DNA of 64,000 bases, taken from assembly GCA_963783885.1 (NCBI GenBank), contig CAWAPJ010000029.1, positions 37,593 through 101,592 on the forward strand. Reading direction: 5' to 3'. This DNA is from Waddliaceae bacterium (GTDB lineage Bacteria > Chlamydiota > Chlamydiia > Chlamydiales > SLFE01). This document shows, piece by piece, positions 17,500 through 29,308 of the stretch. Position 1 is the stretch's first letter, and the number at the start of each line of letters is the position of its first letter. A model generated the notes under the pieces. The model was not told the DNA's origin, did no database searches, and was given only the letters and a program-made list of their open reading frames with translations. A program made the position numbers and the translations under genes.

Positions 17500-17638
17500 G
17501 ACATATAGAACTAATTTTTTATTTTATCCCCCCTTTATGTTATCTCTAAGTTAGATTTACTCTATTTTTATCAAGCCTCAAGACATCATCTTTTTCAGAA
17601 GAGAAAAACAAATTAACAAATCCTTTAAGGAGTTTTAT

Positions 17639-18052
17639 ATGAAAAAGCGAAATTTGAAAAAAATCGCCTTGGCAGGGCTTGCCAGCGGAATTTGCATGAT
17701 TAATTCGGCAAACGCCGGATATATTAATGCCGATGTGAATAACAATTCTATGAACCATCAGGCTCCTATGACATCGCAGCAGCTAAGATCGCAGCTGAAT
17801 CCGGCAACTCAAAAACTTTACGATACTATGAGTTCAGAAGGAAAAGCTTTAGCCCTTAAACTTGCGAATCAAAGCTGCAAGGGCCAAAACAGTTGTAAAG
17901 GACTCAATTCCTGTAAAACCGATCATAACTCCTGCGCAGGCCAGGGCGGCTGCAAAGGAACGTCCAAAGGACCTTTCCAAGATAAGAATATGGCTGTAAA
18001 AACTGCTGCTAAGCATATGGCCGAAAAAAGAAACGGAGCCGTGGAACAGTAA
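17639..18052 (+). CDS. secreted Cys-rich peptide, orphan paralog of the bufferin-like precursor at 28778..29218
   Basis: It has a signal peptide (MKKRNLKKIALAGLASGICMINSANA) and the core QSCKGQNSCKGLNSCKTDHNSCAGQGGCKG. The flanking segments LYDTMSSEGKALALKLA and DKNMAVKTAAKHMAEKR match the clustered precursor. A GGAG lies upstream. Confidence 0.7.
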   Translation: MKKRNLKKIALAGLASGICMINSANAGYINADVNNNSMNHQAPMTSQQLRSQLNPATQKLYDTMSSEGKALALKLANQSCKGQNSCKGLNSCKTDHNSCAGQGGCKGTSKGPFQDKNMAVKTAAKHMAEKRNGAVEQ

Positions 18053-18058
18053 TTACTC

Positions 18059-18088
18059 GATTTGGGGGGGGGATTCTCCCCCCAAATC
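18059..18088. terminator. GC hairpin between convergent genes (probable bidirectional terminator)
   Basis: GATTTGGGGGG(GGG ATTCT)CCCCCCAAATC lies between the stop at 18052 (+) and the stop at 18094 (-). Confidence 0.5.
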
Positions 18089-25816: not shown

Positions 25817-26998
25817 TTATTTGGATAGAACGCAGGCAAAGCCCCCATCCCAACCATCTTTGTTCGGTAATATGACCTTATGACACAAGCAATTTCCCCA
25901 CAATCTTTCTTCTTTGACAAGGTTTTGATTCTCGCAGGGCAGGATGCTGCACGTCATATAGAAAACTCTGCCATGGGGTGTTAATAAATCGAGGGCATGC
26001 CTTAAGAGCTTTTTTTGAAGCGAGCGGAGTTCTTCGACGGCACAAGAGTTGAGCCTCCAACGGGCTTCAGGCCGTTTGTTGAGCACTCCCGAATTGGTGC
26101 AGGGAGCATCGACAATGATAAGATCATAACGATCATCAGTTGAAAACGTTTCTCCACGGCTGATTGAATAGTCGGCATTGATGCCGTATTTTTCAAAATT
26201 TTCCCGTATTTTATTCATCTTGCCTTCCGAAACATCATTGACAGTGAGTTTTGCCTGGGGATAAAGATCATGGGCAAGCAGGGCCTTTCCCCCGGGAGAG
26301 GCTGCGAGGTCTAAAATGGTCTTGGGAGGTTTTGTCAAAAAATTAGCCATTTTCCCCATGAGAAGAACTGGGGTGATGTTCTGAATATAAATATCCGGAG
26401 ATTCGGAATAGTCTTGAGGGTTTTCGATGGGGAAAACTTTTAAAGGAGAATCGCTGCCCCGCCTTAGGCGGCCCATCGTTTTGCCGGGGGTATTGCCCGC
26501 TTCCAAGGTCGCAATTGTCGTTTGAAGGCCGTATTCTACGAGAAGCTGCTGAACATAAAATTTGGTATAGGAATAACGGATGCTGAGGCTTTCGGCATCA
26601 CTTCCCTGAGGCAGTCTGAACTCTGTATGGGGGATCTTCTTCAGCACGGCGTTTAAAAAGGAGGCAAACCGGACATGGCACTCTTTTTTTGCCAGCTCGA
26701 CGCTCTCGTTGACAATGGCGTGCAGAGGAACTTTGTCCATTTCAAGCGCTTGATAGAGAGCAATATAAAGTAAAGCCCTCTCTTTGCGTTTCAACTTCAG
26801 GGTGTCTGAGAGTTGTTTGGCGTAGTGGTCGAGAGTTTTTTGTTTTCTCATAGCGCCGTTGGCGATTTCTTTTGCGAAACGAAGATCTTTCGAGGAAGGG
26901 GCGTCGGATTGTTGCCAGGTCTCAAGAAATGAGGAGATAAACTGCTTTTCCCTCATAGATCCGAGAAGAGCTTTGTAGGCCGCTTCTCTTGCATTCAT
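25817..26998 (-). CDS. rsmB: 16S rRNA (cytosine-C5) methyltransferase, RsmB/Sun type
   Basis: It has a NusB-like N-terminus, a SAM-binding block (ILDLAASPGGKA), and DAPCTNSGV and TCS motifs. Confidence 0.8.
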   Translation of the reverse strand: MNAREAAYKALLGSMREKQFISSFLETWQQSDAPSSKDLRFAKEIANGAMRKQKTLDHYAKQLSDTLKLKRKERALLYIALYQALEMDKVPLHAIVNESVELAKKECHVRFASFLNAVLKKIPHTEFRLPQGSDAESLSIRYSYTKFYVQQLLVEYGLQTTIATLEAGNTPGKTMGRLRRGSDSPLKVFPIENPQDYSESPDIYIQNITPVLLMGKMANFLTKPPKTILDLAASPGGKALLAHDLYPQAKLTVNDVSEGKMNKIRENFEKYGINADYSISRGETFSTDDRYDLIIVDAPCTNSGVLNKRPEARWRLNSCAVEELRSLQKKLLRHALDLLTPHGRVFYMTCSILPCENQNLVKEERLWGNCLCHKVILPNKDGWDGGFACVLSK

Positions 26999-27882
26999 TT
27001 TTTAGTGATCCATTCTCTGACCACCCATTTTTGAAACCATTCCGACAGCTTGCCAGCCGAATCCTCGATCCATTCTTCATGCTCTTCTTCAAGAACCGCG
27101 CACGCTTCGTCGATAGTCGTACCCTGCTTGAAAAGATTGAGAAGAAATAATTCCGGTTCATCAATTTCTTCCCAGCACATGTTGTGTCTAAAGTTGCGGA
27201 AAAGGCAAAATGTATACCGTTTTTCTTTGTCAAGTTTCGGGAAGTCATGCTCTTCCCAATGTTCGGGCTTCTCTTCTAGCATCTCATCGCGGAACTGAAA
27301 GAGGTGATAATTAAGGGGGAAAAGATAAATATGGGGCTGGAGGACGAGACGTTTATTGAGAAGGGAAGAGAACTCATCCGAATTAGGGAGGTCTTTTTGA
27401 CTCAACGGTGGATTGTGGGGCATTAAAAAGCCGTCATTGTAGGCCAGGTCGATTGCTGCGGCGTCATAGACGAATGACTTGTCGTTGTTATGATAGTTGT
27501 TTTGGATCCAGTCAGGGAGCCGGCTCCCAAGCGGGTTTAGCGACCAGCTATCGGGAGGATGGTCCAGCAGGTAGGGCATTGCGATTGTTTGATTAAAATC
27601 GAAGTAGCCGAACATGCGTGTGACTAGAGGAAAAATATCGTGCAGAATCGACAGCAGGCGCCACCAATATTGCTGGTTGTAGATCTCGATTCTTCTATGG
27701 GATTCCAATGTAGGGCTGGGGGTGATAAACTGCTTGGCCTCTTCTTTCATCGGCTGGCCGGAAGGCGAGAGGGGATTCATGCGGCTGTTTTCATCGATGG
27801 GGCGCGCAATAATATTGCCAAACCACTGCTGGGTCAACTTCAGAGTGTGGGGAACTGTAGAATCAAAGATTACGTCAGACAT
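26995..27882 (-). CDS. DUF2063-family partner protein of the MNIO enzyme (BufC/MbnC-like)
   Basis: The 295-aa ORF has the N-terminal pattern ...RRIEIYNQQYWWRLLSILHDIFPLVTRMFGYFDFNQTIAMPYLLDHPPDSWSLNPLG typical of DUF2063. It overlaps the DUF692 gene by 13 nt. Confidence 0.65.
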   Translation of the reverse strand: MSDVIFDSTVPHTLKLTQQWFGNIIARPIDENSRMNPLSPSGQPMKEEAKQFITPSPTLESHRRIEIYNQQYWWRLLSILHDIFPLVTRMFGYFDFNQTIAMPYLLDHPPDSWSLNPLGSRLPDWIQNNYHNNDKSFVYDAAAIDLAYNDGFLMPHNPPLSQKDLPNSDEFSSLLNKRLVLQPHIYLFPLNYHLFQFRDEMLEEKPEHWEEHDFPKLDKEKRYTFCLFRNFRHNMCWEEIDEPELFLLNLFKQGTTIDEACAVLEEEHEEWIEDSAGKLSEWFQKWVVREWITKK

Positions 27883-28739
27883 TTTTTCAAAGGGGTTTTG
27901 CAGTTTTTTTCGATTGCTTTCTGAAATTTTTTCGCTTTCAGCGCTTCGTCCCAGGTTTCCTGAAAGCTCACAAAGTTATCGTCCCATTCAAGAAGAGTTG
28001 AGACGCCCCCTGTTCTTGGATAAACTTCAGCATAGATGTCCCAAACCTCATTGCGGACGTAATTATCATGGGTATCGAGAACATAGTCTCCGTGATCGGT
28101 GTGTCCGGCGATATGGATCTGGATAACGCGTTCCATCGGGATATTGTTATAATAATCTTTCGGGACAAATCCGTGGTTTCTGCTGGAAACGTAAATATTA
28201 TTGACATCGAGCATCATGTAAATGTCGGCTTTTTCCACGATCGCCGAATAAAATTCCCATTCGGGCATTTCATCATCTTTGAAAGCGACATATGAAGAGA
28301 GATTTTCCAGAGCAAAGGGAAGCTCCAGATAATCCTGAACAATGCGCGCTCTTTCAGCGACATAATTGATCACTTCCCGGGTATAGGGCAGGGGGAGAAG
28401 GTCGTGAAAATGTGCCCCGGCCAGCTTTCCCCAGCAAAGGTGGTCGGATATCCAAGGGGTTTTGGTTTTAAAGGACAGTTTTTTCAGTCTTTTCAGGTAG
28501 TCGAAGTCGAGGGGATCGGGGCTCCCTATGGCTAGGGCGACGCCATGTTGGACCACGGGATACATTTCGAGGATCCTTTCGAGATTTTCGATGGGTTTTC
28601 CTCCGTCGACCATGAAATTTTCGCTGATAATTTCGAACCAGTCAACATCCGGTTTATCCCGGAAGATGTCTTCGTAATGGGGAATACGAAGCCCTAGGCC
28701 GATACCTAGATTGGGAATCATTTTGTTTGTTTTAGCCAT
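27870..28739 (-). CDS. DUF692 / MNIO (multinuclear non-heme iron oxidative) enzyme, BufB/MbnB-like
   Basis: The 289-aa ORF has GIGLGLRIPHYEDI, DWFEIISENFMVDGG, YPVVQHGVALAIGS, WISDHLCW and IHIAGH blocks characteristic of DUF692 TIM-barrel enzymes. Confidence 0.85.
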   Translation of the reverse strand: MAKTNKMIPNLGIGLGLRIPHYEDIFRDKPDVDWFEIISENFMVDGGKPIENLERILEMYPVVQHGVALAIGSPDPLDFDYLKRLKKLSFKTKTPWISDHLCWGKLAGAHFHDLLPLPYTREVINYVAERARIVQDYLELPFALENLSSYVAFKDDEMPEWEFYSAIVEKADIYMMLDVNNIYVSSRNHGFVPKDYYNNIPMERVIQIHIAGHTDHGDYVLDTHDNYVRNEVWDIYAEVYPRTGGVSTLLEWDDNFVSFQETWDEALKAKKFQKAIEKNCKTPLKKCLT

Positions 28740-28777: not shown

Positions 28778-29218
28778 TCAATCTGTTTGAGTTTTTTCCC
28801 TTTTTTCAGCCATTTTTTTTGCGACGAGTTTGACTGCGAGATTTTTGTCTCCGATCGCGCATTTTGTTGTTCCTTTGCATTCGCCTTTGCCGGCACAATC
28901 ATTGTCTTCGGTTTTGCAGGCATTGAGTCCTTTGCACTCGTTAGCACCATTGCACCGTCTGCTGGCAACTTTCAGGGCCAGTTTTTTCCCTTCCGGCGAG
29001 AGAGACTCATAAAGCTCTCGTCCTTTTCTATTCAGATTGAGGAACAGTTCCTGTTCGCTCATTAAATAATACCCCTCGTTTTCCGAATTGGGATCCTCTT
29101 CATATTCGTCGGCTTTACCGGCCGATGTTTCTTTTTCCTGCCCTTGCAGCGTAGGAGTCATGAATAGTCCCGAGGCTATGCCGATAATGGCCAGCTTTCC
29201 AAGATCTCTTTTTTTCAT
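28778..29218 (-). CDS. Sec-exported 6-Cys RiPP precursor candidate (bufferin BufA2-like)
   Basis: I set the start at the second Met (ATG at 29218), giving the signal peptide MKKRDLGKLAIIGIASGLFMTPTLQG. The core is RRCNGANECKGLNACKTEDNDCAGKGECKGTTKC. It lies 38 nt upstream of the DUF692 gene. Confidence 0.7.
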   Translation of the reverse strand: MKKRDLGKLAIIGIASGLFMTPTLQGQEKETSAGKADEYEEDPNSENEGYYLMSEQELFLNLNRKGRELYESLSPEGKKLALKVASRRCNGANECKGLNACKTEDNDCAGKGECKGTTKCAIGDKNLAVKLVAKKMAEKREKTQTD

Positions 29219-29308
29219 AACACTTCTCCTTGCCAGATAAAATATGCGGCCTTTGAAAGACCGCATATTTTGGGTTAATAGAAAAACTAAATCCTTCCCT
29301 TATGGGGA

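Follow-up and report, generated by a model that had tools for sequence, protein, structure and literature searches.

An unlinked five-cysteine precursor as a probable second substrate of the only MNIO/DUF2063 pair of a Waddliaceae bacterium

A short gene at positions 17639..18052 of the 64,000-nucleotide stretch of Waddliaceae DNA analysed here (the window) is likely, in our assessment, to encode a functional precursor of the bufferin-2 type (captophorins, 'Cys-Lys' group) from a chlamydial five-Cys subfamily, which the genome's one BufBC pair would modify in trans and which would be exported and engaged in copper binding. This gene, referred to below as the orphan, probably provides the only DUF692/DUF2063 pair of the genome with a second substrate, because the MNIO is the sole one present, five-Cys homologues in other genomes lie beside near-identical MNIOs, and every genome found to carry a five-Cys gene also has an MNIO.

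The bufferins (captophorins) rank with the most numerous classes of RiPPs, and the rules governing which of their cysteines are modified, as well as the contribution of the flanking disulfide, are known from few proteobacterial examples. The arrangement described here would amount to a natural experiment, recurring across chlamydial families, in which one MNIO/DUF2063 pair acts on two substrates that have a common scaffold and differ in the sixth cysteine. What is new is the subfamily with five cysteines, together with its chlamydial helical scaffold; Leprevost et al. (Microb Genom 2025, PMC12452194) describe neither. The bufferin system and, as a concept, the modification of unlinked precursors in trans are already known, and the gain is incremental.

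The orphan precursor and the MNIO operon

The initial annotation had described this locus as a second copy of the cysteine-rich secreted precursor encoded in the MNIO operon, and in its main lines this description is borne out. The ORF on the forward strand is a paralogue of the clustered precursor, with which its product aligns over the whole length in the proposed pairwise comparison (BLASTP, 65/141 identities, 46%, E 9e-40), and 50 of the 88 residues of the conserved domain are identical (57%). All the strings that had been quoted as common to the signal peptides, the helices on either side of the core and the ladders are present in both ORFs, and the two proteins are alike in signal-peptide style, in both helices, in the ladder and in being under purifying selection. 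The separation from the operon, given as about 10 kb, is likewise correct, the MNIO gene lying 9.9 kb away and the immediate neighbours of the orphan being the ntt and aldehyde dehydrogenase (ALDH) genes. The count of five cysteines against six stands for the ladder, in which Gly111 occupies the sixth position, but not for the ORF as a whole, which has a further cysteine, C19, in the predicted signal peptide. The features of the two loci are as follows.

17627..17632 (+): Shine-Dalgarno sequence AAGGAG, 6 nt 5′ of the ATG, read from the sequence
17639..18052 (+): orphan BufA2-like precursor gene, an ORF of 137 aa, five-Cys 'GPF' subtype
17639..17716 (+): predicted Sec signal peptide, residues 1-26, MKKRNLKK-IALAGLASGICMI-NSANA↓G, by sequence inspection
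17768..17869 (+): pre-core helical segment, residues 44-77, ...LYDTMSSEGKALALKLA, with AF2 helices
17876..17953 (+): five-Cys ladder C80-x5-C86-x5-C92-x6-C99-x5-C105, CKGQNSCKGLNSCKTDHNSCAGQGGC, from the alignment
17969..17974 (+): Gly111-Pro112, where the six-Cys type has Cys-Ala (Cys120-Ala in the partner), from the alignment columns
17975..18031 (+): post-core helix, residues 113-131, FQDKNMAVKTAAKHMAEKR, with AF2 helix 116-136
18059..18088 (+): G+C-rich, terminator-like hairpin between the convergent orphan and ALDH genes, 13-pair stem with 8 G-C pairs
26995..27882 (-): DUF2063 / NGO1945_C partner, BufC-like (PF09836, E 7.6e-12; PF22106, E 5e-4; weak HvfC match)
27870..28739 (-): only MNIO gene of the genome, BufB type (PF05114, 343.6 bits; NCBIfam MNIO_BufB, 319.9 bits)
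28778..29218 (-): clustered six-Cys precursor, paralogue of the orphan, 146 aa from the ATG at 29218
29309..29770 (-): ORF leading the operon, a secreted Asn/His/Asp-rich protein with Cys motifs

The N-terminus of the orphan product, judged by inspection, has a basic n-region followed by a hydrophobic core of 13 residues and by an A-x-A cleavage site (SANA↓G), and it follows the consensus MKKxxLKKLALLGLAxG that is conserved across the family. Cys19 lies within the h-region of the predicted signal peptide, and the predicted mature protein (residues 27-137; ~111 aa, 11.8 kDa, pI 9.4) has exactly five cysteines and, if unmodified, a calculated mass of 11,818.1 Da average or 11,810.61 Da monoisotopic. 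Upstream of the ladder, AF2 places helices at residues 46-51, 55-63 and 66-77 (block pLDDT 83-93), and L53, G68, L71, A72 and A76 are nearly invariant among aligned homologues. The five ladder cysteines, four of which are followed by lysine, are invariant in 58 aligned homologues; the equivalent residues of the clustered copy are C89, C95, C101, C108, C114 and C120. Before CysI, the orphan reads LANQS and the clustered copy VASRR, and the two belong to different sequence groups across chlamydial families. The column of Gly111 holds G, A, P or E followed by Pro in 92 five-Cys sequences and Cys in 60 six-Cys sequences. Downstream, the block of the AF2 helix has pLDDT values of 78-85, and conservation reaches 90% or more at F113, D115, K116, N117, A119, V120, M127 and K130; R131 is invariant.

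The MNIO passes the NCBIfam MNIO_BufB cut-off of 310 bits. Across the whole assembly (2.16 Mb, 89% complete), a six-frame motif scan combined with a protein search found one MNIO and exactly two ladder genes, and the single MNIO/DUF2063 pair, at 26995..28739, is in the same genome as the orphan. The operon contains no DoxX gene. Two DoxX-family homologues are encoded on other contigs of the same genome (G000:C5:5529-5960 and C8:118001-118381), unlinked to both precursors; they are 43-44% and 40% identical to the DoxX proteins that flank five-Cys precursors in two other genomes (G108 and G228).

Five-cysteine precursors across chlamydiae and their proposed role

In Caulobacter, BufB and BufC are necessary and sufficient for the conversion of the central cysteines into 5-thiooxazoles, CysI and CysVI of Buf2 stay unmodified and probably form a disulfide, and the bufferin products bind copper in the periplasm (PMC11626156). 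The signal peptide is dispensable for modification (PMC11626156, PMC12452194). The orphan resembles the bufferin 2 system of Caulobacter vibrioides (BufA2/BufB2/BufC2, BUF_6/12Cys) in its predicted Sec signal peptide, its Lys/Gly/Asn-rich Cys ladder and the C-x5-C-x5-C-x6-C-x5-C spacing of Cys I-V, and its genome has a BufB-type MNIO with a DUF2063 partner in an operon that, like buf2, contains no DoxX gene. It differs in that the mature protein has five cysteines and not six, which makes a CysI-CysVI disulfide impossible, in the additional conserved helices that flank the ladder, in the length of the mature protein (~111 aa against ~60 aa), and in lying 9.9 kb from bufBC.

The orphan is also distant from the available models. 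Its only NCBIfam match is Cu_RiPP_BufA2 (NF050166), at 31.1 bits (E 2e-7; residues 74-109 to profile positions 27-62 of 79), below the curated cut-off of 60 bits; for both precursors of the genome this is the sole NCBIfam match, at ~31 bits, and it covers the ladder region alone. Seven other chlamydial homologues score 27-47 bits against the same model, and BufA2 controls from Legionella and Methylosinus, proteobacterial genes recovered by a pattern scan of reference genomes, score 91-92 bits. The core of the orphan is nonetheless 20/28 (71%) identical to BufA2 of Legionella lytica (92 bits), with the same spacing of Cys I-V. The sixth cysteine lies 12 residues after CysV, on a short C-terminal helix, in the canonical Legionella protein and 5 residues after it in the chlamydial six-Cys type, and the pre-core segment has no counterpart in the canonical BufA2 of 84 aa. 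With five ladder cysteines, the orphan falls short of the six (or twelve) core cysteines that define BufA2, and it stands outside both the curated BufA2 model and the published 6/12-Cys definition. Current family models and cluster-based mining therefore miss divergent or unlinked precursors of this kind.

No Pfam model, including DUF2282 (PF10048), matched the orphan at E <= 0.01, so that by these models it is neither a Buf1 nor a chlamydial cysteine-rich envelope protein of the OmcA/OmcB type; a PDB sequence-profile search gave 0 matches, and Foldseek found none at E < 4 for the AF2 model.

Among captophorins, the closest likeness is to the 'Cys-Lys' group (ACS Chem Biol 2026, PMC13097082), with which the orphan has in common multiple Cys-Lys motifs and a genome encoding an MNIO + PME1 (DUF2063) pair. 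Asp251 of BufB2 is reported as a substrate-specificity residue of Cys-Lys MNIOs, and the survey was centred on Pseudomonadota (PMC13097082). The class is defined chemically, by 5-thiooxazole; for the orphan, a copper-binding peptide product carrying 5-thiooxazoles is predicted. A lysine after CysI was considered as the mark of a new modification site, as it occurs in 59/92 five-Cys and 18/60 six-Cys sequences, and the argument was dropped because canonical BufA2 has Cys-Lys-Gly at CysI, a cysteine that is reported to be unmodified in Caulobacter.

The initial annotation had implied that the orphan is a derived copy of the operon gene in which the last cysteine was lost. This part does not hold, as the five-Cys state is the hallmark of a conserved subfamily. 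A protein search with the orphan returned 674 representatives at 50% identity (E <= 1e-3) and 75 clusters at 90% identity, the latter unnamed and all from MAGs of Parachlamydiales/Parachlamydiaceae. Of 214 retrieved sequences that were scored for the ladder, a set biased by the five-Cys query, 135 have five cysteines, 77 have six and one has two five-Cys domains. The five-Cys form (…CKGTSxGPF…) characterizes a large subfamily among Parachlamydiales MAGs, and the missing cysteine is not a matter of local decay.

The genomic setting of these genes was followed in 301 genomes of the order, in which 97 ladder domains from 77 genomes were compared in position with the MNIO. In at least 25 genomes, a five-Cys gene is the sole precursor and lies directly beside the MNIO, giving the adjacency to the MNIO that the orphan itself does not have. 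Sole five-Cys precursors within 400 nt of the MNIO occur in families f29, f8, f11, f25, f37 and f44, and in f29 this is the case for most of the 17 five-Cys genomes. Identity to the MNIO of the window is 70-81% for the enzymes encoded alongside sole five-Cys precursors and 70-86% for those alongside six-Cys precursors; the compared identities give no sign of a separate MNIO lineage for five-Cys precursors.

The survey of precursor copy number in relatives, which had been suggested as a check, shows that the combination of both precursor types with one MNIO recurs, being present in eight genomes from four families (G000, the genome of the window, and G005, G021, G228, G128, G196, G244 and G064). 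In seven of these eight, the MNIO shares a contig with a precursor, and in all seven it is the six-Cys gene that adjoins it; in G064, the five-Cys and six-Cys genes are in tandem on a contig other than that of the MNIO. The five-Cys gene of the dual-type genomes is unlinked or else takes the place farther from the MNIO in a tandem (at 622 nt in G196 and 1190 nt in G244).

Several variants of this arrangement were also seen. In G108, a DUF2063 gene and a DoxX gene come right after a five-Cys gene, and the only MNIO is on another contig; the locus (L010, G108:C62, 165-1911) has the form of a split bufferin cluster in which the DoxX gene is divergent. In G228, two DoxX genes precede the five-Cys gene. 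A five-Cys sub-group carries an extra cysteine in the pre-core helix (…MDCEGQN…; L019, L020, L043 and L044 of families f8, f11 and f25, and P0048, P0049, P0052 and others), and several of its members (e.g. L019, L020) have a further upstream cysteine in ECVPP or KCTSP; the extra residue could provide an alternative disulfide arrangement. The five-Cys ladder domain occurs twice in tandem in two proteins, L063 (G033:C29) and P0088, which with their 10 cysteines parallel the published 12-Cys Buf2. One genome of the same family has a conserved MNIO (G001:C9:4941-5726) with no precursor found by the orphan query at E <= 1e-3, and the substrate of this MNIO may be more divergent.

These comparisons lend modification in trans good support, and from them we infer it together with the export and the copper binding of the orphan product. 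The full-length precursor would be recognized in the cytoplasm, via its conserved helical and core segments, by BufB (27870..28739) together with BufC (26995..27882), and the pair would convert the ladder cysteines to 5-thiooxazoles. The modified protein would then be exported by Sec and cleaved after Ala26, to act in the periplasm as a copper-binding protein of ~11.8 kDa alongside the six-Cys product. Since no CysI-CysVI disulfide can form, one cysteine would be left without its staple partner, either free or additionally modified. Such a system may bear on copper handling by amoeba-associated chlamydiae in the host vacuole. Precedent exists in that stand-alone and tandem Buf1 and Buf2 precursor genes are common and their products may be modified from another locus, and it has been proposed that one MNIO may serve more than one substrate (PMC12452194); the orphan resembles these stand-alone precursors in being unlinked with an MNIO elsewhere in the genome. 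Counting against this reading are the unlinked position and the absence of an upstream motif common to the orphan and the operon (the regions 29219-29308 and 29771-30025 gave only AT-rich chance matches), the score below the BufA2 cut-off and the lack of the defining sixth cysteine, and the poor confidence of the AF2 model in the Cys core (pLDDT only 52-57).

We tentatively entertain, as a possibility that we rather doubt, that the five-Cys 'GPF' proteins form a functionally distinct captophorin subclass without the disulfide staple, in which the odd cysteine would be free or become a fifth thiooxazole, and that they are kept beside the six-Cys form under one MNIO for a different job. If so, this job might concern another metal or oxidation state, or a covalent tie, through the unpaired cysteine, to the disulfide-cross-linked chlamydial envelope.

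The orphan could instead be exported unmodified, as an MNIO-independent cysteine-rich periplasmic protein that, for instance, binds metal through thiolates, buffers redox changes or is tethered to the cross-linked envelope by a disulfide of its unpaired cysteine. The gene is unlinked and has its own Shine-Dalgarno site and terminator, the mature part has an odd number of cysteines, and the literature allows that stand-alone precursors are possibly 'not modified' (PMC12452194). We nevertheless judge this unlikely. The same type of precursor adjoins the MNIO in those 25 or more genomes, and the canonical-substrate ladder spacing and the Cys-Lys-Gly motifs are invariant. Moreover, an MNIO is present in 34/34 five-Cys genomes, six of them clearly unlinked cases, against a background of 115/301 (38%) for the order, a count that ignores shared ancestry; the only four precursor matches in MNIO-less genomes are weak and partial and leave the ladder uncovered.

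Age of the two precursor types

The sequences favour, without proving, an old separation of the five-Cys and six-Cys types. In a maximum-likelihood (ML) tree, 35 six-Cys sequences form a clade (SH-aLRT 94) from which the orphan is absent; it falls instead among five-Cys sequences from other families. Its mean identity to sequences of other families is 63.5% for the five-Cys type (maximum 74%) and 53.0% for the six-Cys type, and it is 56.8% identical to the clustered copy in the same comparison. The clustered copy gives the mirror image, with means of 51.8% to five-Cys and 61.4% to six-Cys sequences of other families.

The split is only favoured because an AU test, run on 88 columns, does not reject a recent duplication, whether the four sequences of the genus (p 0.16; log-likelihood 34.5 units lower) or the six of the family (p 0.31) are held together. 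The orphan would then be a duplicate of the operon precursor made at the level of the genus or family, which lost its last cysteine and drifted, its resemblance to other five-Cys proteins being convergent. The youth of the locus would agree with this. We consider such an origin improbable, given the 34.5 units by which the best constrained tree falls short, the closer likeness of the orphan to five-Cys proteins of other families than to its own paralogue, the well-supported six-Cys clade from which it is absent, and the recurrence of both types together in eight genomes of four families.

The position of the gene appears, on comparison of the loci, to be a recent arrangement even under an old split of the types, because the same junction is empty in a congeneric genome, G004. 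There (L090, G004:C34, 1501-4354), ntt (TLC) and the ALDH gene converge with an overlap of ~50 nt and nothing between them, and in other genera of the family the ALDH gene is not beside ntt. Given the empty junction, the orphan would have been either inserted in the lineage of G000 and G005 or deleted in G004. Neither its GC nor its GC3 content carries a foreign signature.

Gene integrity and the two loci

The orphan is, as far as can be read from the DNA, a functional gene that is constrained to the same degree as the operon copy, because it has a Shine-Dalgarno sequence, a hairpin behind it, an orthologue in the sister species G005 and a dN/dS of 0.075. The G005 orthologue, 93% identical, is likewise flanked by ntt (TLC) and the ALDH gene; the two orthologues differ at 27 synonymous and 10 non-synonymous positions (dS 0.42), and the reading frame is intact in both species. 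Between the same two species, the clustered copy has a dN/dS of 0.078, equal to that of the orphan. The start, AAGGAGTTTTAT-ATG, is kept in G005, which also has a hairpin related to that at 18059..18088. A promoter scan found no sigma-70-like site in the 139-nt spacer upstream, and the gene would be transcribed as its own short unit or possibly by read-through from the upstream ntt. The notion of a decaying or non-functional remnant, or of a mis-called ORF, to which a conserved cysteine missing relative to the neighbour and a location away from the operon might lend themselves, is effectively refuted by this dN/dS at a dS of 0.42, the frame intact in two species, the Shine-Dalgarno sequence conserved in G005 and more than 130 five-Cys cluster representatives in public data.

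At the operon, two further features were noted. The leading ORF (29309-29770, -) carries the motifs GGCPQKC and GSCG, and in several relatives (L014, L015, L016, L017, L021, L022 and L031) a GCGxxxCGG-like segment follows the signal peptide and forms one protein with the ladder domain, to whose N-terminus it is joined. Because such a similar segment is fused to the ladder domain in relatives, the separate ORF may be a split-off module of these fused proteins. An inverted repeat, ATATGCGGTC-TTTCAAA-GGCCGCATAT (29242-29268, -), separates the leading ORF from the clustered precursor and could be an intra-operon terminator, an attenuator or an RNA-processing site.
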